Shown in pieces: positions 12,590 through 47,793 of a DNA stretch of 64,000 nucleotides. Source of the DNA: Minisyncoccota bacterium. GTDB taxonomy: Bacteria; Patescibacteriota; Minisyncoccia; UBA6257; GWB1-50-10. The stretch spans positions 1,424 to 65,423 of the forward strand of contig JBAYJE010000003.1 of the NCBI GenBank assembly GCA_041665265.1. The letters run 5' to 3'. The translations under genes were made by a program, and so were the position numbers. Position 1 is the first letter of the stretch, and the number at the start of each line of letters is the position of its first letter. The notes under the pieces were generated by a model that was given only the letters and a program-made list of their open reading frames with translations, did not search any database and was not told where the DNA came from.

Positions 12590-12617
12590 TTGACAAATAG
12601 TTAAATTATAGTATAAT
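12590..12617 (+). promoter_or_regulatory. Consensus sigma70 promoter (TTGACA-16-TATAAT)
   Basis: TTGACA at 12590-12595 and TATAAT at 12612-12617. It is upstream of the 12689 gene. Confidence 0.6.
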
Positions 12618-12688: not shown

Positions 12689-13345
12689 ATGAAACGTTCC
12701 TTTGTTGTTTTAATGGCTTTCCTTGTCATTCTTTCGACAGGTTTGGTATTTGCTCAAAAGTCTGCTGTTCGTTCGGATTCAAGTATTTCACAGGCTATGA
12801 CGCCGGAAGAAGCAAAGAAAATTCGCGAAAGTGTTATTGCACTTGGTGAGCTCTTTGGTGTGAATCAGAATTCACAGCAGCAGAATCAACAGCCGGTTCA
12901 GCAGCAAAATCAACAACAAGGCTCCGGTAAGACCGTTGCCGATGTTGCCGACAAGGCTTTAGATCTTCTTGCAAAGGGAATTACCACCATCGCGGAGAAT
13001 CTTGAAAAGACGGCGCCGTTTGTTTGGAAGGTAATGATCAAACAGCAGTATGCAAATGCCATCGCAAATCTGATCGTACCATGGAGTTTATTCTTCGGAG
13101 TAGTGACCTATATGTCTATTAGCCGAAAAATGTTTAAGAAGAGTGATCGTGAAATTGATGGAAAAATTGATTGGGACAGTGGTCGTGTTTGGGTTGTTTC
13201 TGCTATTCCAACAATTCTTTTAATTATTTTTGGCACCTGGGGATTCAATCGGCTCTCTGATTCGATTCAACTCCTCATCAATCCAGAATATTATGCGATT
13301 CGCGATCTTTTGCGCATGATTATGTCAGGTGGAAAGACATTCTAA
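12689..13345 (+). CDS. Hypothetical secreted/membrane protein with a Q-rich linker and 2 C-terminal TM helices
   Basis: Signal peptide 'MKRSFVVLMAFLVILSTGLVFA', a 'QQQNQQPVQQQNQQQ' tract, and two hydrophobic helices. Confidence 0.55.
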   Translation: MKRSFVVLMAFLVILSTGLVFAQKSAVRSDSSISQAMTPEEAKKIRESVIALGELFGVNQNSQQQNQQPVQQQNQQQGSGKTVADVADKALDLLAKGITTIAENLEKTAPFVWKVMIKQQYANAIANLIVPWSLFFGVVTYMSISRKMFKKSDREIDGKIDWDSGRVWVVSAIPTILLIIFGTWGFNRLSDSIQLLINPEYYAIRDLLRMIMSGGKTF

Positions 13346-14284: not shown

Positions 14285-14369
14285 TGCGCGGGTGGCGAAA
14301 CTGGCAGACGCACTACCTTGAGGTGGTAGCACCCGTAAGGGTATGCAGGTTCAACTCCTGTCCCGCGCA
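14285..14369 (+). tRNA. tRNA-Leu (anticodon GAG), long variable arm, no encoded CCA
   Basis: GCGCGGG-TG-GCGAAACTGGCAGACGC-ACTACC-TTGAGGT-GGTAG-CACCCGTAAGGGTATG-CAGGTTCAACTCCTG-TCCCGCGC-A. Confidence 0.85.
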
Positions 14370-14573
14370 CTAATATCAAAAGGACGTTCAACAACGTCTT
14401 TTTTGATATCCATGTTAGGAGGAGTTGAACCGTAGGCCGAAGACCTCGAAGAGAGGGCGTAGGTCTCGAACATAGCAATGTGAGAGGAAACTCCTGTCCC
14501 GCGCACTAATATCAAAAGGACGTTCAACAACGTCTTTTTTGATATCCATGTTAGGAGGAGTTGAACCGTAGGC
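14353..14573. repeat. Tandem 85-bp direct repeat (copy 1 at 14353-14437, copy 2 at 14489-14573). Each copy holds the last ~17 nt of tRNA-Leu, a terminator hairpin and an inverted T-arm fragment.
   Basis: 'aactcctgtcccgcgcactaatatcaaaaggacgttcaacaacgtcttttttgatatccatgttaggaggagttgaaccgtaggc' occurs twice, 136 bp apart. The 51-bp spacer has its own hairpin (AGACCTC...AGGTCT). Confidence 0.8.
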
Positions 14574-21479: not shown

Positions 21480-21551
21480 GGGTGTGTAGTTCAGTGGTAG
21501 AACGCTGTCCTGATAAGACAGAGGTCGAAGGTTCGATTCCTTCCACACCCA
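21480..21551 (+). tRNA. tRNA-Ile (anticodon GAU)
   Basis: GGGTGTG-TA-GTTC-AGTGGTA-GAAC-G-CTGTC-CTGATAA-GACAG-AGGTC-GAAGG-TTCGATT-CCTTC-CACACCC-A. Confidence 0.85.
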
Positions 21552-21587
21552 CAAAGAAAGGCCTTGTGAGGAGGTCTTTTCTTTAGC

Positions 21588-21661
21588 GGGCCTGTAGCTC
21601 AGTTGGTTAGAGCGCCTCATTTGCAATGAGGAGGTCACCGGTTCGAATCCGGTCAGGTCCA
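21588..21661 (+). tRNA. tRNA-Ala (anticodon UGC) with a G3:U70 identity pair
   Basis: GGGCCTGTAGCTCAGTTGGTTAGAGCGCCTCATTTGCAATGAGGAGGTCACCGGTTCGAATCCGGTCAGGTCCA. Confidence 0.85.
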
Positions 21662-21769
21662 CAAATTGCTCTTTTGGGTAGAAGTGTCCCACTTAACAAA
21701 TAGAGAGTTCTACTCAATTTAGTATTGATTTGAAAAATGGGTCGCGATAGATAATACTTATATACGTAG

Positions 21770-36788: not shown

Positions 36789-37927
36789 ATATATTGATTG
36801 ACATACGACTTCTTAGTAAGGGTCGTGTCTCTGGTATTGAGGAGTATACCAAGTCCCTTATTGACGATCTTTTACACGAGGGGAGTAAAGAAACATTCCA
36901 TTTTTTCTATAATGGTTTTCATCATGCGCCTTTTCCAGCAATGTGGAAGGCAGCATCAAATGCGCGCCTTATTGAATGGAGTGTCCCCAATAAACTTCTT
37001 GATTTTACCACTCGATTTTTAAAATGGCCTCGCGTTGAACAAATTGCACATACTGACCTTGTATTCAGCCCTCATTTTAATCTCTTGCCTGCTACCGCAC
37101 ACACAAAAAGGGTCATTACTTTTCATGATCTCTCATTTCTCCATTTTCCAGAATTCTATCCGTTACGAAAAAGACTCTGGCATTGGCAACAAAATTATCG
37201 CGTACAGGCAACACACGCAGACGCACTTATTGCAGTTTCCGAATTCACACGACAAGATATCATTACCTCGCTTCGTGTTTCAGAAAAAAAGGTGCACACC
37301 ATCTATTCAGGTATTAATTCGTTTTTCTCCGAACTTCCAGAAAAAAGTCCAGAACGCGCACGCTTTGTAAAGGAAAAAAATCTCCACCAGCCATTTCTTT
37401 TATTTGTAGGAGTACTTGAACCAAGAAAAAACATATCAGGAATTATTCGCGCATTTAACGAAGTTAAAAAGATTTCCTATCATCGTGAATTACAGCTTAT
37501 TATTGTCGGAAGGAAGGGTTGGTTATGTGATACAATTTTTAGAGATGCAGCAGAGTCCCCATGGTCTCGTGATATTCGTTTTTGGGGAGAAGCATCTCTT
37601 GAAGATTTGAAGCTCCTCTATAATTTAACCTCGGCGTTCGTGTATCCATCTTTTTTTGAAGGATTTGGGTTTCCACCACTCGAAGCACAAGCATGCGGAG
37701 CACCAGTTATTACCTCAAATCGCTCCTCATTGCCAGAAATAGTGGGGGAAGGTGCACTTCTTGTTGATCCTTGGAAAATTGAGGAACTCATTACTGCGAT
37801 TGATTGTGTGGTGCGCGATACCTCTTTTGCAAATGATTTAAAAAAACGAGGACGAGTGAATGCGAAAAGATTTTCTTGGCAAAAAACTGCAAAACAAATT
37901 CTCGAACTTTTTCATTCACTTACCTAA
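36785..37927 (+). CDS. Glycosyltransferase family 4 (group 1)
   Basis: '[39 protein letters not shown]'. Confidence 0.8.
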
Positions 37928-37931
37928 CCGT

Positions 37932-40028
37932 ATGTCCCAACAAGTTCCTATAAAAAATATTGACCCGGTTTTAGTGGATATAAAAAATCCACGCATCAAT
38001 TATACGTGGTCATCTCACCACAAAGTGGTAGATTTACGCAAAACACCCATAGATGAGGGTGGCAAACGACGCACCATCGAATTCATTGCAAAAGTCTCTC
38101 TTTTTGCAGTACTTGGTGTAGTTTCGTTAGGAATTGTAGTCGAATCTTTTATTCTTTTTCAAACAAAAGATGTGGTAAAAAATGCAGGAGAAAAGATCGC
38201 ACAAAACTTCTCCATGTCAGTAGATGCATTTCAAAATTTAGAGCCCGATAAAGCAACCGCAGCATTAAGGCAAAATGGTACAGAAATTCGTGAACTCGAT
38301 GCAATTCTTGAAAACCGTCACACGTCTGGTTTTTTAAGTCTTATTGGGACAATTATTCCTACATTCCGTGAAGCAGGAACACTTGTAAAGCATGTGGCTT
38401 CGCTCAATATGAGTTTCTTAAAGCTTGCGGAAACGACTGATAAATTGAAACAGGATGGATTTACTGATTTTCAATCAAATGGGGATGCTCTTGTTGAAAA
38501 AATGACGAACGCACGAAACGCAATAAAAGTTATTCTTGCAGAAGCACAAGTAATTAAAAATGCGACCACCAATCTTCGAAGACTTTCCTCATTTTTTGAT
38601 AAGGTGGATAGCGTAATTGGAGAAAAATATCTTGCGCACAGTGCCGATCTTTACCGTGGAGATGCTGCAATCGAACATTTCTTGTCACTTGTGGATTCCG
38701 AAAAAGAAAAACATATTGCCCTTTTTTTTCAAAATCCTGCAGAAATAAGACCAGGCGGCGGATTTATTGGAAGCTATTCGGATATGACTATTCAAAATGG
38801 ACAGATGATGAACTTGGATGTGCGCGATATTTATGACCCTGATGGACAGTTCTTCGGCAAAGTCATTCCTCCTTATCAACTGCAAACGGTAAGTGAAAAA
38901 TGGGGTGCGCGTGATGCAAATTGGTTTTTTGACTTTCCCACTTCTGCAAAAACAGTACTCGGTTTTCTTGAGGAATCTCTCATGTATTCAGAAAAAGGCA
39001 TTACCTTTGATGGCGCGATTGCAATTAATATAGAAGTTATTAAAACGCTCCTTTCGGTAACTGGGCCAATTCCACTTCCTGAGTATAACCTTACTATTAC
39101 AAATGAGAATTTTCTTTTGGAAGTACAACGAGAGGTCGAAGCAGGAAAGGATAAGGCGGCAGGCCAGCCAAAAAAAATATTAAAAGTACTCACTCCAATG
39201 CTTCTAGAAAAATTGAAGGACCTTGATGCTGCAGGGAAAACCGACCTCATTAAAAAATTTACAAGCCACATTGGAAAGAAGGATATTATGTTCTATATGA
39301 AAGATGCTGAGTTAGCATCGTTCTTAAATGATGCGAAAGCAAATGGCGCAATATATACAATCCCACGCGATTTTTGGGGTTCGTATCTTGCGGTAGTGGA
39401 TGCAAATGTTGCAGGAGGAAAAACAGATGCATTTATGTCACAGTCGGTAAGCGCGGATATAAATGTAGACACGAGCGGCTCTCTCCTCACCGACATTACC
39501 GTGACGCGCACTCATAAAGGAGGGACACAAAAAGACCCATGGTGGAATACGGATAATAAAAATTTTATTCAATTATTGATGAATCCTGGTTCAAGCCTTG
39601 TAACGATGAAGGGGAATACAATAAAACTTATTAAACCCACATTCGACTACGAAGCAAATGAATATATAAAAAATCCAGACCTTGAAAGTATCGATTCGTC
39701 GCGTGTTGCACTTCCTGGATTTAATGCATGGACGATGAGCGAATTTGGGAAAACTGCATTTGCAACGTGGTTTACGGTACCCCCCGCAAAGACAGGGACC
39801 TTGACGCTACGGGTACATACCGACAATACTGCGGAGGCAACTCTTGAAGAGGGAAAGAAATATACCTTTGTATATGAGCGTCAATCGGGTGTCCCCACAA
39901 AGCTTTCCGTGTCCGTTTCAGCACCCGTCGGGTTTACCTGGGCCGAGTCAGGAACCCCGCTTTACACCTACACTAATGACGACATAGATGGACGCACCTT
40001 ATTTACTCTCGAATTAAAACGACAATGA
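37932..40028 (+). CDS. DUF4012-like large membrane-anchored extracytoplasmic protein
   Basis: An N-terminal TM and 'NPAEIRPGGGFIGSYSDM', the hallmark DUF4012 motif. About 700 aa. Confidence 0.5.
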   Translation: MSQQVPIKNIDPVLVDIKNPRINYTWSSHHKVVDLRKTPIDEGGKRRTIEFIAKVSLFAVLGVVSLGIVVESFILFQTKDVVKNAGEKIAQNFSMSVDAFQNLEPDKATAALRQNGTEIRELDAILENRHTSGFLSLIGTIIPTFREAGTLVKHVASLNMSFLKLAETTDKLKQDGFTDFQSNGDALVEKMTNARNAIKVILAEAQVIKNATTNLRRLSSFFDKVDSVIGEKYLAHSADLYRGDAAIEHFLSLVDSEKEKHIALFFQNPAEIRPGGGFIGSYSDMTIQNGQMMNLDVRDIYDPDGQFFGKVIPPYQLQTVSEKWGARDANWFFDFPTSAKTVLGFLEESLMYSEKGITFDGAIAINIEVIKTLLSVTGPIPLPEYNLTITNENFLLEVQREVEAGKDKAAGQPKKILKVLTPMLLEKLKDLDAAGKTDLIKKFTSHIGKKDIMFYMKDAELASFLNDAKANGAIYTIPRDFWGSYLAVVDANVAGGKTDAFMSQSVSADINVDTSGSLLTDITVTRTHKGGTQKDPWWNTDNKNFIQLLMNPGSSLVTMKGNTIKLIKPTFDYEANEYIKNPDLESIDSSRVALPGFNAWTMSEFGKTAFATWFTVPPAKTGTLTLRVHTDNTAEATLEEGKKYTFVYERQSGVPTKLSVSVSAPVGFTWAESGTPLYTYTNDDIDGRTLFTLELKRQ

Positions 40029-41845
40029 AACTCCATATTAGAAATTTCGTCATAATTGCACATGTAGATCACGGCAAGAGCACTCTTGCCGATCGTCTTT
40101 TGGAAGTCACGGGAACCATTGAAAAAAGGAAAATGAAAGAACAGTATCTCGATCAACTTGAACTTGAGCGGGAGCGTGGTATTACGATTAAAATGGCACC
40201 AGTGCGCATGCATTACACCATGAACGACATGGAGTATATTTTGAATCTTATTGATACACCGGGACACTCTGATTTTTCATATGAAGTTTCTCGCGCGCTT
40301 AATGCGGTGGAAGGCGCAGTGCTTCTTGTTGACGTGACTCAAGGAATCCAAGCACAAACACTCGCAAATTATCGACTCGCAAAAGCAGCTGGCCTCACTG
40401 TGCTTGGTGCATTGAATAAAGTTGATTTCTTTAAACTCGAATCAGGAGAAATTGATTTTGAAAATGACAGGTTGAAAAATCACAGGAGAGACCTCGCTGA
40501 ACTTATTGGGGTATCAGAGAATGAAATTTATTATGTGTCAGGAAAAAGTGGAGATGGCGTTGATGAACTTCTAAAAGGGATTGTCACCAAAGTACCTCCT
40601 CCTCAAGATGAGAAAATTGGAGTGGGTCGTGCATTGGTATTTGATTCTTTCTACGATGACCATAAAGGAATTATCGCGTCTGTTCGAATGTGGAATGGGG
40701 AGGTAAATGGAGAAAATGCGATTTATCTTGTGGCCACAAACACCCATTCAAAAATAAAAGAAATTGGCCACTTTATGCCTCAGTTAAAAGTACTTCCTAT
40801 TCCACAAACACTCTCCGCAGGTGAAATTGGGTACATTGCAACTGGCATTCGGGACCCCGAAAAGATTCGCATTGGAGACACAATACTTATTGGCAATTTT
40901 AAGAATTCAAGTGAGTTAGCATTGCCAGGATATAAAGAAGCAATGTCGGTAGTATTTGTATCATTTTATCCAGAGGAAAATGATGATTTCGAGATGCTCT
41001 CGAAAGGGTTACAAAAATTAAAACTGAATGATTGTGCACTTCATATAGAACCAGACCAAAACGAAGTATTAGGCCGTGGATATAAAGTGGGGTTTTTAGG
41101 AAGGCTCCATTTTGAAATTACGAGTGAACGTCTTTTGCGTGAATTTAATGTGGCAACGGTAAATACATTTCCTTCGGTGCTTTATAAGGTGAAGAAAGGG
41201 GAGGAGTGGCTCATGATTGTAAAACCAGAAGAGTTGCCACAAGATTATGACGAATTGTGGGAGCCAATCATTACTGTAGAAATTATTCTGCCAAATGAAT
41301 ATCTTTCGAGTGTACTCTCACTTCAAAAAAAGTTTCGTTTTTCTGATCTTCATACAGAAACTTTAGGTGATCGTATTCGTCTTATCACTCAAATGCCACT
41401 TGCAGAACTTGTAAGTGATTTCGATGACCAACTAAAGTCCGCCACAAAAGGAATGGCTTCATTCAGTTATGAGTTTGTAAAATATGCAAAAGCGGACATC
41501 GCCCGGGTTGATATTCTCATCTCTCATGAAAGTATTCCGGGTCTTAGTCGCTTTCTTCCAAGGGAATCACTTGAACGAGAAGCGCGTCAAATGGTGTCAC
41601 GCCTAAAAGACCTCCTACCACGCCAGCAGTGGAGTCAACCAATTCAAGCACAATCCGAAGGAAAGATTCTTTCTCGTGATGACATTGCCGCATTACGTAA
41701 GGATGTGACAGGGTATCTCTATGGAGGTGATCGTACACGAAAAATGAAACTCTGGAAGAAGCAAAAACGTGGAAAGAAGAATCTTTTAGAACGTGCAACA
41801 GTACAAATTGCACCTGAAGTATTTAAGGAACTCCTCAAGCGCTAA
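40025..41845 (+). CDS. lepA: Elongation factor 4 (LepA)
   Basis: 'NFVIIAHVDHGKSTLADRLLE', 'ERERGITIK', 'DTPGHSDFSYEVSRAL'. Confidence 0.95.
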   Translation: MKLHIRNFVIIAHVDHGKSTLADRLLEVTGTIEKRKMKEQYLDQLELERERGITIKMAPVRMHYTMNDMEYILNLIDTPGHSDFSYEVSRALNAVEGAVLLVDVTQGIQAQTLANYRLAKAAGLTVLGALNKVDFFKLESGEIDFENDRLKNHRRDLAELIGVSENEIYYVSGKSGDGVDELLKGIVTKVPPPQDEKIGVGRALVFDSFYDDHKGIIASVRMWNGEVNGENAIYLVATNTHSKIKEIGHFMPQLKVLPIPQTLSAGEIGYIATGIRDPEKIRIGDTILIGNFKNSSELALPGYKEAMSVVFVSFYPEENDDFEMLSKGLQKLKLNDCALHIEPDQNEVLGRGYKVGFLGRLHFEITSERLLREFNVATVNTFPSVLYKVKKGEEWLMIVKPEELPQDYDELWEPIITVEIILPNEYLSSVLSLQKKFRFSDLHTETLGDRIRLITQMPLAELVSDFDDQLKSATKGMASFSYEFVKYAKADIARVDILISHESIPGLSRFLPRESLEREARQMVSRLKDLLPRQQWSQPIQAQSEGKILSRDDIAALRKDVTGYLYGGDRTRKMKLWKKQKRGKKNLLERATVQIAPEVFKELLKR

Positions 41846-42423: not shown

Positions 42424-42673
42424 ACTCATTATAAGTAAACTCACATCCCATGAGTCATAGATTATTTAAAAAATTAGACGAGGAATTAGATACCATTCTT
42501 GATGATTTTAATAAAAACTTTCATATTCCACCGATTCTTTTGATGGCATTAAAATTGAAACATTCGAACAAAATTCAAGAAATTATTAAAAAATACAGCA
42601 GAAAAAATGACGAAGAGTAAGGAATAAAACCTCTCTATACAATAACTGTATTTCCAGGATATAGTGAAGGAAG

Positions 42674-42744
42674 GTGGGATTGGTTCAGTGGTAGAATGCG
42701 ACCTTCCCAAGGTTGAGACACGGGTTCGATTCCCGTATCCCGCA
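42674..42744 (+). tRNA. tRNA-Gly (anticodon CCC)
   Basis: GTGGGAT-TG-GTTC-AGTGGTA-GAAT-G-CGACC-TTCCCAA-GGTTG-AGAC-ACGGG-TTCGATT-CCCGT-ATCCCGC-A. Confidence 0.8.
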
Positions 42745-42837
42745 CTAGAAAAACTCCCATTTATGGGGGTTTTGTTTAAAGAAATACATATTAATAGGTG
42801 AGTAAAATGCTATACTAAAAGGGATAAAGCGAATGCA

Positions 42838-42866
42838 TTGACATTTTGCTGTTTCGGTAGTATAAT
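42838..42866 (+). promoter_or_regulatory. Consensus sigma70 promoter (TTGACA-17-TATAAT)
   Basis: TTGACA at 42838-42843 and TATAAT at 42861-42866. It drives the small-protein / giant-protein pair. Confidence 0.65.
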
Positions 42867-42889
42867 ATAAACCAATAAATACAATACTT

Positions 42890-43204
42890 ATGAACCAAAC
42901 ACGTATTGAAGAGCTCATGAAAGTAGACTTGTTTGAAGCCTTGAATATAGATGGTTTTTCAGTCGAGAAAAAACTTGAGGTGATGGATGAGATTGCACAA
43001 GTTGCAATGAAAGGAATCTGGTTGAAGATTCTTGAAAATCTCTCTGAAGAAGAGCAAGAACAATTAAATCTGCTTCTTGATAAAGGACCAAGTTCAGAAG
43101 AACTTACCACGTTTCTCAAAACGTCGATTCCGAATCTCGAAAATCTTATCAAGGGAGAAATTGCTTCATATAAAGCGATGCTTCTTCCTCCAGAAATTAA
43201 CTAG
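42890..43204 (+). CDS. Hypothetical small acidic protein (104 aa)
   Basis: ORF in an operon with the giant gene. No known motifs. Confidence 0.5.
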   Translation: MNQTRIEELMKVDLFEALNIDGFSVEKKLEVMDEIAQVAMKGIWLKILENLSEEEQEQLNLLLDKGPSSEELTTFLKTSIPNLENLIKGEIASYKAMLLPPEIN

Positions 43205-43220
43205 TTAATTATTTTTACAT

Positions 43221-46200
43221 ATGAACATGGAAATACCTCCAAAAAGCACTACAACACCGGTCAAAGAAGCAGAAAAGACTCAAGAGATTATCTCACCTGA
43301 GAAACTTAAAGTTGCCGAGGTACTTCTTGGTGATAAGAATTTTAATATTGAGGATCTTTACGAGAAGTCAAAAGAAGGTAAGGGGTCAGTATTGAATCAG
43401 GATAGGGCTCGAGAAAAAATGAAGGAAGTAGAAGCATTCTCTCCAGAGGCGCGTAAATGTGCGGAGGATGTGGTTTCGGCGCGCGAGGAAAGTGCGCGGG
43501 TTTTGGAACAAGCGTACGAGATTAAAAAGAGAGATCCCAATTCGAAAAAACTAAAAATTTCAGATATTATTAGTCTTTTTCCGGATGAGCAAAAAAATAC
43601 AAAAGAAAAACACGAAAATGCGGTTATCGCTCTCAAGAAAACTATTCTTCAAGATGAGATTATTACCTTGCGACAAAAGCATGGTCAAAATCCTGAATCC
43701 GATAAACTTATAAGAGAAGGTATCAAAAACGGAACAACACTCGAATCAATTCGAAATATTTCGGTTATGGAACTTGCGCGCATGAACGATGCGCGAGAAG
43801 GGGTTAACAAAGGGAATTCAAAACTTTGGGAAAATATTAAAAAACCTTTTGCAGCTTTTGCAAAAATAGAACCACGAGCCTTACGTTCAGTGGTGGGTTC
43901 AAGTATTTTTACCGCCGGACTCATTGGAGGAAGTGTTGCATTTAGTATTCCAATTGCAGCTGCGGCAGCAGGATACGGAACCTATGCCGGTTATCGCGTA
44001 GTCCGCGCACTTGTAGGGGGCACTATTTCAGCTTTTGTACAAAAGCATGTTACTAACAAAATCGTAGAAAGCGCATACAAAGTAGACACAAAAAAAGCAT
44101 TTGAAGATATCAAGAAAAGCACAAAACAGAGCGTTGTTGAGCAAGGTATTTCAGATGAACTTTCAGAGATAGTTGATTTAGAAAGTTTAGCTTCTCAAAA
44201 TTTTAGTACCGACAAAGAACTCGCTGAAGAATATTCAAAGAAAATGAAGAAGGCTCGTCGTCTTCACACCGCAAATGCGATTGGTTCGGGTGTTATCACT
44301 GGAGCTGCAGGTGGTATGATTGGCGCAAAAGGACTCGACTTCAGTATAGGAAAATTCGATGAGTTTACTGGAGGAGGTTCTACACCCGAACAAATTCCCG
44401 GCGTTATACCAAAAGGTGAACCAGAATGGGAATCTACTACCGCACAAAAAGGTGATTCGGTTTGGAGTGTTGTTGAACACGATTTAGAAAAAAACGTTCC
44501 TGGATTCAAGGATATGACGGAAGCGGAAAGAACATATGTAATCGATCACTACAAAGATTATGTAGAAGCGGATCCTGAAAAATTTGGTCTTACTAACCCC
44601 GATCAGATTAAAATTGGATGGGGTAAGGAAGTTGACAGTCTTTTTAATAACAAGCAGGAGCTTGCAGAAATCATTGGTACGGCAAAGGGATTAAAACCTG
44701 AAGAAGTTCAGAATATTTTGCGCACCAACGAATGGAATAGATTGCATCCTGATGGCATAAGTCACGAAGAAGTAGTTCCACAGGGAGCACAAACACCGGA
44801 AGAATTACGACCTGCATTTTCACCAGAAGATCAGCGTATATACAGCCAGGCGATGCAAAATTATCGTGGAGGTACTTTTGAACAAGGTTCTGCTGCATGG
44901 AATTCGGCTCACGCACAAGGTGAACAATCACTTCTTGCATTAGCGCATGATCATCCAAGAGTAATGCAAAATCCCGCATACCAAGATTTCAAATACACGG
45001 TAAGAAATATCTTCGGAGAACACCTTCAGAAAGAACTTGGTGAGGGTGGTATGCTCAAGATGTTTCAAAGTGCTGACCATGATGACTTGGTTCGAGAAAC
45101 ATCAGGTATTGCAGAAACATTTGGATTAAAACCACAAGAAGCGCAAATATACACCGCGTTTCTTGGTCAAGGCCACGAGCTTGATGAAAATACATTTAAA
45201 CCATTTGTAAATCCAGAAACAGGTGAGGTTTCTATGAAAGAGTTTGCCCGCTCCATCGGTCAATTTGGTGCAATTGCTGAAAACAATCACGATCTTCCTG
45301 ATATTCCTGTGGGAAAAACAGTATCGGCGTGGGAGCCACGAATCATTCGTGTGGGTGATAATAATTATCTCGGCCTTGTCCGTAATGCGGGTGAGGGAAA
45401 ATTTGAGTATTCAATTGAGCCAGGTGATGTAAGTGGTGCAAGTAAAACGGGCATGGAACTAATGCTTGAACAAGGAGCGAAGTCCACTCCAATTAATGCT
45501 GAAGCGCCAATAGAAAATGTTCGTGCAATACCTCCCTCATCAATAAGAGGACTCGCTGATACAGTTCAGAAAATTGGTCCGTCAACTGAATCTAGTATTC
45601 CAAAAACAGACTTGAATGAACCAATGAAAGGAGTGGTAGTTCCAGAAAATATTCAACACGAACTTGCTGCTTCACAGGAAGAACTTTATAAAACGATTGG
45701 ACTTCAAGCGAGTATTGAATCAGGGGATATTGAGCGAATTCATAATTCCCTCGTAAATATCGGAAAGGTATATGGATTAAGTCCTCAAGAAACTTCTGTA
45801 TTTGAGCAATATACCGCAGGAGGAAAGCCACTCACTACAGAAACAATGCGAGGGTTTGTTGATCAGGAAACAAGAACTCCAGCTTTTGCAAAAGTTGCGG
45901 AAGCCATGAACGAGTTTAAAGAAGTGGCAAAGAGAACAGAACTTCCACAAAATCTCCCTGGTGAAGCCGTTTCTGATTGGGAACCAAGAATGATAAAGAC
46001 GGGTGTAAGCGGAACAGGAAGACTTGGACTTGTACATAAGATGGGTCCGAATTTATACGAAGTAAAAGTAGGAAATGCCGAAATGACTTCGTTATCACGC
46101 ACTGATATGCAAGAGCTTATCGTTGGGGCAAAAGTAGACAATGTTAATGAAATGGGCCCCGTTGCAGTAGAAACTTCAGTAGTGCGCGAAGCAACTGACG

Positions 46201-46967
46201 AAATAAACAAACAGCCGATTAATATCAATTCATTAAATGAAGGTCCTTCAGTTGAAGCAGAACGATTTAGGACAGGAGAACAACTTAAAGAGGAAATCAG
46301 TGAGCGATTAGCAAAAAAACCGATCGGAAGAACTGAAGCGTTCAAGGTACCTAAGATGAATTTGAATGAACCAATGAAAGGAGTGGTAGTTCCAGAAAAT
46401 ATTCAACACGAACTTGCTGCTTCACAGGAAGAACTTTATAAAACGATTGGACTCAGGGAGGAATCGGGGAGTATTGAGCAGATACATGATTCATTTGTGC
46501 GTATTGGAAATGTGTACGGATTAAGCACAAAGGAAATTGCTGTATTTGAGCAATATGCATTTAATAACGAAACGCTTATTAATCCAGAAACCGGAGCTCC
46601 AAGCTTTGCAAAAGTTGCGGAAGCCATGAACGAGTTTAAAGAAGTGGCAAAGAGAACAGAACTTCCAAAGAATATTTCTGGAGAAACCTATTCCAATTGG
46701 GAACCTAGAAAATTAGGAATAAGGTTTGGTACCGAAAGAATAGAGGAGCTCGGGCTCGTACGTAAGACGGGACCCGCAACATACGATATGAGAATAGGCA
46801 ATAGAGCACTCACTTCGATAACTGAGGGACAAGTGCGACAAGCTATTGATGCGGGACATTGGGATGACGTCATTCCAGTAAAACCTACCGCTCCGATGCC
46901 TCCTGGAAGTGAACAAATTGGGCAATCCGATAGAATTATAAAAGGCCGTTCTCCTGAAAATATCTAA
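43221..46967 (+). CDS. Giant membrane-anchored surface protein (1248 aa) with a TM hairpin, a LysM-like segment and three ~240-aa tandem repeats
   Basis: Continuous ORF. Gly/Ala-rich hydrophobic segments around aa 215-270 and 330-345. 'QKGDSVWSVVEHDL...NPDQIKIGWGKEV' is LysM-like. The repeated unit is 'LNEPMKGVVVPENIQHELAASQEELYKTIGL...FAKVAEAMNEFKEVAKRTELP'. Confidence 0.8.
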   Translation: MNMEIPPKSTTTPVKEAEKTQEIISPEKLKVAEVLLGDKNFNIEDLYEKSKEGKGSVLNQDRAREKMKEVEAFSPEARKCAEDVVSAREESARVLEQAYEIKKRDPNSKKLKISDIISLFPDEQKNTKEKHENAVIALKKTILQDEIITLRQKHGQNPESDKLIREGIKNGTTLESIRNISVMELARMNDAREGVNKGNSKLWENIKKPFAAFAKIEPRALRSVVGSSIFTAGLIGGSVAFSIPIAAAAAGYGTYAGYRVVRALVGGTISAFVQKHVTNKIVESAYKVDTKKAFEDIKKSTKQSVVEQGISDELSEIVDLESLASQNFSTDKELAEEYSKKMKKARRLHTANAIGSGVITGAAGGMIGAKGLDFSIGKFDEFTGGGSTPEQIPGVIPKGEPEWESTTAQKGDSVWSVVEHDLEKNVPGFKDMTEAERTYVIDHYKDYVEADPEKFGLTNPDQIKIGWGKEVDSLFNNKQELAEIIGTAKGLKPEEVQNILRTNEWNRLHPDGISHEEVVPQGAQTPEELRPAFSPEDQRIYSQAMQNYRGGTFEQGSAAWNSAHAQGEQSLLALAHDHPRVMQNPAYQDFKYTVRNIFGEHLQKELGEGGMLKMFQSADHDDLVRETSGIAETFGLKPQEAQIYTAFLGQGHELDENTFKPFVNPETGEVSMKEFARSIGQFGAIAENNHDLPDIPVGKTVSAWEPRIIRVGDNNYLGLVRNAGEGKFEYSIEPGDVSGASKTGMELMLEQGAKSTPINAEAPIENVRAIPPSSIRGLADTVQKIGPSTESSIPKTDLNEPMKGVVVPENIQHELAASQEELYKTIGLQASIESGDIERIHNSLVNIGKVYGLSPQETSVFEQYTAGGKPLTTETMRGFVDQETRTPAFAKVAEAMNEFKEVAKRTELPQNLPGEAVSDWEPRMIKTGVSGTGRLGLVHKMGPNLYEVKVGNAEMTSLSRTDMQELIVGAKVDNVNEMGPVAVETSVVREATDEINKQPININSLNEGPSVEAERFRTGEQLKEEISERLAKKPIGRTEAFKVPKMNLNEPMKGVVVPENIQHELAASQEELYKTIGLREESGSIEQIHDSFVRIGNVYGLSTKEIAVFEQYAFNNETLINPETGAPSFAKVAEAMNEFKEVAKRTELPKNISGETYSNWEPRKLGIRFGTERIEELGLVRKTGPATYDMRIGNRALTSITEGQVRQAIDAGHWDDVIPVKPTAPMPPGSEQIGQSDRIIKGRSPENI
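45612..46667 (+). repeat. Near-identical intragenic DNA repeats (92-bp block 45612-45703 = 46362-46453; ~64-bp block 45884-45947 = 46604-46667; period 720-750 bp)
   Basis: Exact nucleotide identity of the blocks, seen directly in the sequence. Confidence 0.8.
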
Positions 46968-47067
46968 GTGAATTCAAAAAGAGCCTGGGATAGGCTCTTT
47001 TTGTTGACACAGCACTATTTTTCTGGCATAAAGAGAACAGTCACTTTTAAATAATCTGGAGAAACCA

Positions 47068-47793
47068 ATGCGTATTATCGATCGCTTAAGCATCTGGCTC
47101 ACAAACATCTATCGTTTTATTAATAGTGTGTTTCGTGAATCCATCAAACCATTCGTTCCTGCGGTAAAAGCGTGGATACAACGTCATAAAGAGCGTCGCG
47201 AAGATAAGAGAGAAGATCGCATTTTTCGAATTTTAAATTTTAGAATTATGGGTGAAGAAGTGGTCACTGTACCAAATGTACTTTCAGCACTTCGTCCAAT
47301 TCTTGCTCTTCTTCTTCTTCCAATGCGATATTATGGTGTTCCACTCACAATTACCGCACCCATATTTGCCATAGCATTACTTACTGACAAATATGATGGG
47401 GTATGGGCAGAACAAGATGGACATACAAACTTCGGAGAATTTTTAGATCCGATTTGTGATAAAATAGCACTTTTTATTTTTGTGCTTCCTGATCTTGCAT
47501 ATCTGAACTCTTGGATTATATGGCCACTTTTTGTAATAGAGCTTGTTCTCTTTACGGTTTCCATAGGAGCTATGATTTCCATACATCTCGGAGGGCTTAA
47601 AAAAAGTACCAATTTAAGTTCGAACATTTTTGGTAAAACAAAATTTACCATGGAATGTGTGGCACTTTGTGCGCTTGCAATCGGATTCATTGATTTCGCA
47701 GGATGGTTCTTTGCAATTGCAATTCCTTTTGCGCTTCTTAGTATTCTGGGAAAAGCAAAAGAACTCATGCGTGCTCATTATCACGCTGCATAA
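47068..47793 (+). CDS. CDP-alcohol phosphatidyltransferase family membrane protein
   Basis: 'DKYDGVWAEQDGHTNFGEFLDPICDKI' (the D-x2-DG-x2-AR...G-x3-D-x3-D-type motif). Polytopic. Confidence 0.6.
   Translation: MRIIDRLSIWLTNIYRFINSVFRESIKPFVPAVKAWIQRHKERREDKREDRIFRILNFRIMGEEVVTVPNVLSALRPILALLLLPMRYYGVPLTITAPIFAIALLTDKYDGVWAEQDGHTNFGEFLDPICDKIALFIFVLPDLAYLNSWIIWPLFVIELVLFTVSIGAMISIHLGGLKKSTNLSSNIFGKTKFTMECVALCALAIGFIDFAGWFFAIAIPFALLSILGKAKELMRAHYHAA

Follow-up and report, generated by a model that had tools for sequence, protein, structure and literature searches.

A two-gene unit in a Minisyncoccota bacterium joins a divergent DUF5663 gene to a gene for a large membrane protein with three copies of a rare repeat domain

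The 64,000-nucleotide (nt) stretch of the Minisyncoccota contig JBAYJE010000003.1 analysed here (the window) carries, on its forward strand, two open reading frames (ORFs) of 104 and 1248 amino acids (aa) that are separated by 16 nt and form a single transcription unit, peculiar to Parcubacteria (Candidatus Paceibacterota and their relatives). The first gene encodes a small acidic protein related to the DUF5663 family, and the second encodes a large protein with membrane segments in its N-terminal third and three copies of a domain, here called WEPR, towards its C-terminus (Table 1). The NCBI record of the large protein, from a Candidatus Paceibacterota bacterium, calls it a 'hypothetical protein', and a search of 5.8 billion clustered proteins brought up just 13 relatives. 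Scans of the large protein against Pfam, NCBIfam, PHROGs and PADLOC returned nothing significant, which bears out an earlier reading of this DNA made from its letters (the sequence-only reading) that no known domain explains the repeats. The same reading called the protein 'giant'; the length of 1248 aa is correct, and the protein is merely large.

Table 1. Features of the two-gene unit and its immediate surroundings (window coordinates)
Feature	Position	Strand	Details
tRNA-Gly(CCC)	42674–42745	+	upstream neighbour of the unit
Terminator-like hairpin and U-run	42749–42777	+	−12.5 kcal/mol, z −3.2; just 3′ of tRNA-Gly(CCC)
Upstream non-coding element	42804–42821	+	AAAATGCTATACTAAAAG; about 17 nt 5′ of the −35 hexamer
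Promoter, sigma-70 type	42838–42866	+	TTGACA-17-TATAAT; 12/12 consensus match
Partner gene, 104 aa	42890–43204	+	acidic, isoelectric point (pI) 4.4; divergent DUF5663 (PF18908)
Large gene, 1248 aa	43221–46967	+	100% identical to NCBI MFA6407332.1
N-terminal domain, aa 1–221	43221–43883	+	basic, pI 8.4 (aa 1–210); family-conserved; putatively cytoplasmic
Gly/Ala-rich membrane hairpin, aa 222–275	43884–44045	+	segment, Pro, segment; conserved Y..R..R...GG
Charged loop, aa 276–347	44046–44261	+	14 K/R, 14 D/E; putatively cytoplasmic; terminates in KKMKKARR
Third membrane segment, aa 348–371	44262–44333	+	KKMKKARR directly before it
Conserved module, aa 398–508	44412–44744	+	GDSVW...ID.YKD.V.ADP.KFGL...GWGKE; family conservation peak
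WEPR copy R1, aa 589–766	44985–45518	+	proximal type; 87% identical to R1 of P0002
WEPR copy R2, aa 798–985	45612–46175	+	extra copy, only in this genome among those sampled
Identical tract 1, 92 nt	45612–45703 = 46362–46453	+	encodes linker motif LNEPMKGVVVPENIQHELAASQEELYKTIGL; copies 750 nt apart, in frame
Identical tract 2, 63 nt	45885–45947 = 46605–46667	+	encodes FAKVAEAMNEFKEVAKRTELP, junction of helical and beta subdomains; copies 720 nt apart, in frame
Linker, 62 aa	46176–46361	+	between R2 and R3
WEPR copy R3, aa 1048–1225	46362–46895	+	counterpart of terminal copy in P0003 and L019
Strong terminator-like hairpin and U-run	46976–47005	+	−20.5 kcal/mol, z −5.4; begins 9 nt past the large-gene stop

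The unit opens with a perfect consensus promoter, which lies ahead of the acidic ORF and the large ORF exactly where the sequence-only reading had placed it; 23 nt separate the end of the −10 hexamer from the ATG of the first gene. Two perfect consensus matches were found in the window against 0.08 expected from shuffled sequences, the other being TTGACA-N16-TATAAT at 12590–12617 (+), about 70 nt 5′ of an ORF at 12689–13345. In an alignment of the window with two related loci, L001 and L002, the hexamers are the same, and the promoter region is kept in both although the coding sequences have diverged at synonymous sites. The core AAAATGCTATACT of the non-coding element upstream of the −35 hexamer is also invariant across these three species, the remainder of the element differing in L002; it may be an UP-like element or a second −10-like box. 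Among 22 related loci, a perfect consensus stands 5′ of the first gene of the pair in six and a match of at least 11/12 in eight, compared with a rate of 0.85% for matches of at least 11/12 in random 150-nt windows. This enrichment is seen whether the DUF5663 gene or the large gene comes first. The promoter-driven unit of the sequence-only reading is thus upheld, with a promoter that is conserved in relatives, and from the quality of this promoter the unit is apparently highly expressed.

In the 11 loci with a promoter match of at least 10/12, the start codon follows the −10 hexamer by 6–31 nt. At L013 (5689–5726), L034 (1799–1836) and L028 (near 4678), the −10 hexamer ends 6–8 nt before the start of the large gene, as placed by our own ORF calls. 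Because the hexamer lies so near the called start codons, the messages may be leaderless in several relatives. At the two ends of the unit in the window, the terminator-like hairpins with U-runs, neither of which was picked up by a consensus scan, are judged from their sequence to mark the upstream and downstream edges of the transcription unit, so that the two genes form a bracketed two-gene unit.

The partner protein has no hydrophobic segment and aligns end to end with the neighbours of orthologous large genes in related loci. PF18908 is matched by five of eight aligned partners (best expectation value (E) 3.3e-9); the window protein itself, which is 29–38% identical to the matching copies, gives no Pfam match, even at E = 1. 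A hidden Markov model built from the partners, among them the window copy, finds all the neighbours at E values from 1e-18 to 1e-46, and the membership of the window protein in DUF5663 is, on this evidence, transitive and not direct. In common with the family, the window protein has a length in the range of about 100–107 aa, is acidic and helical in character, carries no other domain and derives from a candidate-phylum bacterium; it differs in being too divergent for direct detection by Pfam. Its relatives are 100–128 aa long and all occur in genomes labelled Paceibacterota, Jorgensenbacteria, Parcubacteria or Saccharibacteria, and in metagenome contigs.

A DUF5663 gene directly adjoins the large gene in 19 of the 20 distinct loci in which both flanks are readable, the near-identical pair L032/L033 being the sole exception. 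It lies upstream of the large gene in the clade of Paceibacterota and Jorgensenbacteria, and downstream in distant relatives, including bins labelled Saccharibacteria. Profile–profile comparison found DUF5663 unrelated to both the WEPR repeat and the conserved core of the large protein, and a PDB sequence search with the partner profile gave no match. The literature searched holds no mention of DUF5663, nor of its strict pairing with a large membrane protein. Several arrangements were seen around the pair in individual relatives. In the Jorgensenbacteria locus L005 (2903–6425), two DUF5663 paralogues lie one on either side of the large gene, and a 75-aa ORF is found between the large gene and the second paralogue. 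In two distant relatives, L006 (8088–11083) and L012 (7178–7624), an ORF of about 150 aa follows the DUF5663 gene; in L006 this ORF is succeeded by a gene for a VirD4/TraG-like coupling protein (DUF8128, TraG-D_C), and two PMT_2 glycosyltransferase genes lie upstream. Two large ORFs upstream in L012, known as ORFs alone, are like the glycosyltransferase genes of L006 in size and orientation.

The large protein begins with a hydrophilic N-terminus, and its first hydrophobic segment starts at aa 222. In all 13 homologues, the flank before this first membrane segment is rich in Lys and Arg (4–6 K/R against 0–3 D/E, with at most one D/E in 12 of the 13). The flank is followed by the Gly/Ala-rich hairpin, the charged loop and the third membrane segment, and right after the latter stands an acidic Gly/Pro-rich stalk (aa 372–397); this membrane-proximal layout is common to the 13 homologues. 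The putative outer portion of about 880 aa is acidic (pI 4.9) and cysteine-free, and the C-terminus, KGRSPENI, forms no hydrophobic tail. By the positive-inside rule, this layout, shared by the 13 homologues, fits an orientation with the N-terminus inside and the C-terminus, with some 880 residues of acidic sequence, outside. The outline given by the sequence-only reading, in which the N-terminus is cytoplasmic, the membrane segments are rich in Gly and Ala and the repeats form an array at the C-terminal end, is supported, the location of the N-terminus being deduced from this charge pattern. The last residues, KGRSPENI (46941–46964), are the same in three species (window, P0003 and L019), the preceding 15–20 residues being variable, and could be a recognition or sorting motif.

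Beyond the stalk, conservation within the family peaks in a module that is predicted to form a six-helix domain. The sequence-only reading described a LysM-like stretch in the protein, and a likeness to LysM (PF01476) does exist, as the motifs (K/S)GDSVW(R/K)V(I/V) and, later, FGL.N.D.IK.G(W/Q) resemble its first and last parts. However, the Pfam LysM model is touched by one of 13 family members (E 0.0032), with no match to the window sequence, and none of the 13 clearly reaches the curated threshold. A profile of the module gave weak matches to the LysM proteins SafA (E 0.12) and LytE (E 0.77). Furthermore, LysM has a beta-alpha-alpha-beta fold of about 45 residues, whereas the model of the module is all-helical and has no structural match to LysM, and the label is therefore not retained. 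High scores to TAL-effector repeats in a PDB sequence search with the core profile were rejected; they arise from many weak matches to helix starts of the type L(T/S)PEQ..I that are summed, and no single stretch passes.

The WEPR copies R1, R2 and R3 follow the module. The three repeats counted by the sequence-only reading are all present, but their length is not about 240 aa: the domain spans about 180 aa, and the R2–R3 period of 250 aa includes the 62-aa linker. At the protein level, R2 and R3 are 57% identical (E 7e-68), and R1 and R2 are 27% identical (E 1e-19). The structure model of R2 has a predicted local distance difference test score (pLDDT) of 77.9 and a predicted template modelling score (pTM) of 0.75, and each WEPR domain is modelled as a bundle of helices with a small SH3/Tudor-like beta unit behind it. 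The domain model matches no solved fold, and a PDB sequence search with the repeat profile gave no match. The domain is also rare, as a profile search of 1.84 billion representatives recovered only 29 clusters. The WEPR proteins that were read are all large and of the same general type, with the domain usually at the C-terminal end; no significant Pfam domain was found in the seven longest. The domain was not found in phage records or viral contigs.

R2 and R3 share two identical tracts of DNA, which the sequence-only reading had taken as a sign of very recent duplication or ongoing variation in repeat number. The first tract is exactly 92 nt, as reported; the second exists but measures 63 nt rather than 64, off by one base. 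No extra silent copies of either tract are present in the window. Over their whole length, R2 and R3 are 68% identical at the DNA level, with the two perfect tracts standing in a 63% background, and the chance of such identical runs against this background is about 8e-17 for the 92-nt tract and 4e-11 for the 63-nt tract. The protein sequences show the same mosaic, the identity of R2 to R3 being 100%, 52%, 95% and 37% in the successive segments A, B, C and D. In the beta-half, R2 shares 37% identity with R3, whereas R3 is 77% identical there to the terminal copy of P0003/L019, and the variable segments of R2 are at most about 40% identical to anything sampled. A very recent duplication does not agree with such divergence. 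Because tracts of 100% identity stand in a 63% background, R2 and R3 are better explained as old or strongly diverged paralogues that have undergone recent short-tract gene conversion. The three-copy array would have arisen by the gain of one terminal-type domain, R2, and gene conversion would have homogenised two short stretches of R2 and R3. Between R1 and the terminal WEPR domain, P0002 (aa 770–905), P0003 (aa 775–930) and L019 carry 2–3 copies of a repeat of about 50 aa, VVIP.D(I/V)E..VAA.QA(K/R)LP..(I/V)E...(N/Y)LS(K/Q)...FD, and tract 1 of the window encodes a counterpart of its first half.

Across the family, WEPR copies number three here, two in P0002, P0003 and L019, one in P0004, P0005, P0014 and L032/L033, and zero in most other members, which bear other C-termini. 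The window protein is 78–87% identical to P0002 from the N-terminus through R1 (aa 1–766) but 37% identical in the terminal beta-half; this terminal beta-half is 77% identical to that of P0003, which is otherwise more distant than P0002. The similarity of the terminal domain therefore conflicts with that of the rest of the protein and points to a history of replacement or exchange of the terminal domain. Meanwhile, the ratio of nonsynonymous to synonymous substitution rates (dN/dS), taken from one close pair (L002 and L019), is 0.06–0.10 in the terminal WEPR domain and 0.05–0.11 in every domain region tested. These values are uniformly low, and thus each domain type is under purifying selection rather than continuous diversification. 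Ongoing variation in repeat number is not seen either. The same protein of 1246/1248 aa is found in two databases on three contigs that were possibly not assembled independently (of the two from JGI the longer measures 102,147 nt, and that from NCBI/ENA 71,388 nt), and the two-copy relative is 1045 aa long on all three of its contigs. Recombination between the in-frame tracts could in principle yield two-copy variants.

These features can be accommodated in a tentative picture, possible though somewhat short of probable, of a lineage-specific and probably abundant envelope protein with a cytoplasmic part, a small partner and an exposed, modular C-terminus that binds a ligand. Transcription would run from the strong promoter through the DUF5663 gene and the large gene to the terminator. 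On the cytoplasmic side would lie the basic N-terminal domain (about 220 aa) and the charged loop (about 70 aa), and the Gly/Ala-rich hairpin together with one more membrane segment would anchor the protein. Outside the membrane would stand the family-wide six-helix module and then the WEPR array, which differs between lineages and whose distal domains may bind an external ligand, be it the wall or surface layer of the cell that makes the protein or another, partner cell. The acidic DUF5663 protein (pI 4.4, against pI 8.4 for the N-terminal domain) would be an obligate cytoplasmic partner, probably an adaptor or chaperone for that basic domain.

Several points weigh against this picture. The topology comes from a manual positive-inside count rather than from a dedicated predictor, and the second membrane segment, which contains two conserved arginines, may not cross the membrane; if the hairpin crossed only once, the C-terminus would be cytoplasmic. 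Both domain models were built on shallow alignments (9 and 13 sequences), and gene conversion was deduced from the pattern of identity alone. A housekeeping role with no external ligand would also fit the strong purifying selection and the conserved synteny with lepA, divIC and hisS, and neither experiment nor homology connects the protein, in any of its parts, with an established function. In an unlikely alternative, the protein is an intracellular scaffold tethered to the membrane: with a single crossing in the hairpin region, or none at the third segment, its C-terminal domains would act in the cytoplasm with DUF5663, for example in cell division or shape. Divisome genes do lie nearby in two settings, as the Paceibacterota clade has divIC upstream and P0012 has an FtsQ-type POTRA_1 gene in its vicinity, but these neighbours are not retained in the distant loci L012–L015. 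DUF5663 has neither a signal peptide nor a membrane segment, and the whole large protein is helix-rich and under purifying selection, as a scaffold might be; the positive-inside pattern nevertheless favours an external C-terminus in 13 of 13 homologues, as do the acidic Gly/Pro-rich stalks after the third segment.

Equally improbable is an adhesin of variable phase or repeat number, whose binding to the host would be tuned by a very recent duplication and by repeats that are still being gained and lost. Related species do differ in how many C-terminal domains they have and of which type, the phylogeny of the terminal domain disagrees with that of the rest (P0002 being close over aa 1–766 and P0003 at the terminal beta-half), and the 92- and 63-nt tracts are in-frame direct repeats that could mediate in-frame deletion. 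However, the 68% DNA identity of R2 and R3 indicates that the duplication is not recent, all contigs of this population, and likewise those of the two-copy relative, have the same length, and the gene is single-copy at a fixed position among housekeeping genes. Purifying selection on the terminal domain further weakens a role in host interaction, and neither Pfam nor NCBIfam revealed an adhesin domain, sorting signal or wall-anchor motif. A signal peptide, a wall anchor of the LPXTG or another type, and a known adhesin repeat, the marks of classical repeat adhesins, are all missing from the protein. Nor does it resemble a phage tape-measure or structural protein, as PHROGs gave no match, a tblastn search of 50,697 phage records found nothing, viral contigs contained no relative, and the locus keeps its place among housekeeping genes.

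Two further explanations concern the identical tracts themselves. The source is a short-read metagenome with exact repeats of 92 and 63 nt, at which strain variants could have been mis-joined into a chimeric three-copy array. Such a mis-assembly is very unlikely: a typical read of 150 nt is longer than either tract, R2, the 62-aa linker and R3 are joined by unique sequence, the ORF is intact, R2 gives a confident model, and the product recurs on the three contigs, even if these were not separately assembled. Diversity-generating retroelements are reportedly common in these bacteria, and blocks repeated in the 3′ part of a surface-type gene might suggest template and variable repeats. This origin has almost no likelihood and is effectively refuted by the lack of adenine bias, since adenine stands in R2 at 40 and in R3 at 42 of the 120 R2/R3 mismatches; the blocks are also 100% identical instead of differing at adenine positions, and housekeeping genes, with no reverse transcriptase, lie beside the locus.

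The general kind of protein, membrane-anchored with a repeat array shaped by recombination, is already familiar. Gram-positive bacteria have surface proteins with tandem repeats that are homogenised by recombination, and the window protein is like them in its membrane or envelope anchoring, its distal repeat array, its differences in copy number between lineages and its patches of identical DNA. It differs from them in having no signal peptide with LPXTG and no known repeat family, in its large, conserved and putatively cytoplasmic domain, in its obligate small partner gene, and in its deeply diverged repeats, which are under purifying and not diversifying selection. PASTA-domain kinases, which belong to the bitopic sensors and scaffolds of the envelope that bear repeat arrays outside the cell, offer an analogy only, with a cytoplasmic domain, a membrane anchor and a variable number of extracellular binding domains; the large protein has no kinase, no other recognised cytoplasmic domain and no PASTA repeat.

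Around the unit, the order of housekeeping genes is fixed and the large gene is single-copy. A DUF4012 gene (37860–40028) overlaps lepA (40025–41845) by 4 nt and is followed by an 80-aa ORF and divIC, an order retained in several related genomes. Between divIC and tRNA-Gly lies a 56-aa ORF (42451–42621, +) that was also called in the corresponding place in L007 and L001 (56–57 aa, no Pfam match). Downstream, a TTGACA hexamer begins within the U-run of the large gene's terminator (47004–47032, +) and could be the −35 hexamer for a CDP-alcohol phosphatidyltransferase gene at 47068. Elsewhere in the window, tRNA-Ile(GAT) adjoins tRNA-Ala(TGC) (21480–21662, +). This tRNA pair usually sits in the 16S–23S spacer, and an Rfam scan found ribosomal RNA absent from the whole 64-kb window. 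A tRNA-Leu(GAG) gene at 14286–14370 (+) was called by ARAGORN and went unreported by the Rfam tRNA model at its gathering threshold.

Neither the protein family and its two orphan domains nor the pairing with DUF5663 appears to have been described before, and nothing specific was found in the literature on Parcubacteria surface proteins. The bacteria of this radiation are generally assumed to live attached to other microbes, and, to our knowledge, almost nothing is known of their surface proteins, type IV pili aside. A further-reaching and rather doubtful proposal is that DUF5663 and the large protein make up a highly expressed, Parcubacteria-specific trans-envelope apparatus, in which DUF5663 would engage the basic cytoplasmic domain, exchangeable WEPR heads of orphan fold would contact the surface of a partner or host, and their specificity would be reset by the gain of domains, the replacement of cassettes and in-frame recombination between the identical tracts. 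Long-standing questions are not answered directly by these results. They do give DUF5663 its first consistent genomic partner, in a conserved and apparently strongly expressed pair; in addition, they define two domains without sequence or structural relatives and supply a clear example of patchy gene conversion within one gene. If its C-terminal part is exposed, the large protein would be a reasonable candidate for studies of the envelope and of host contact in these bacteria; if it is not, the protein would be one more lineage-specific housekeeping protein.

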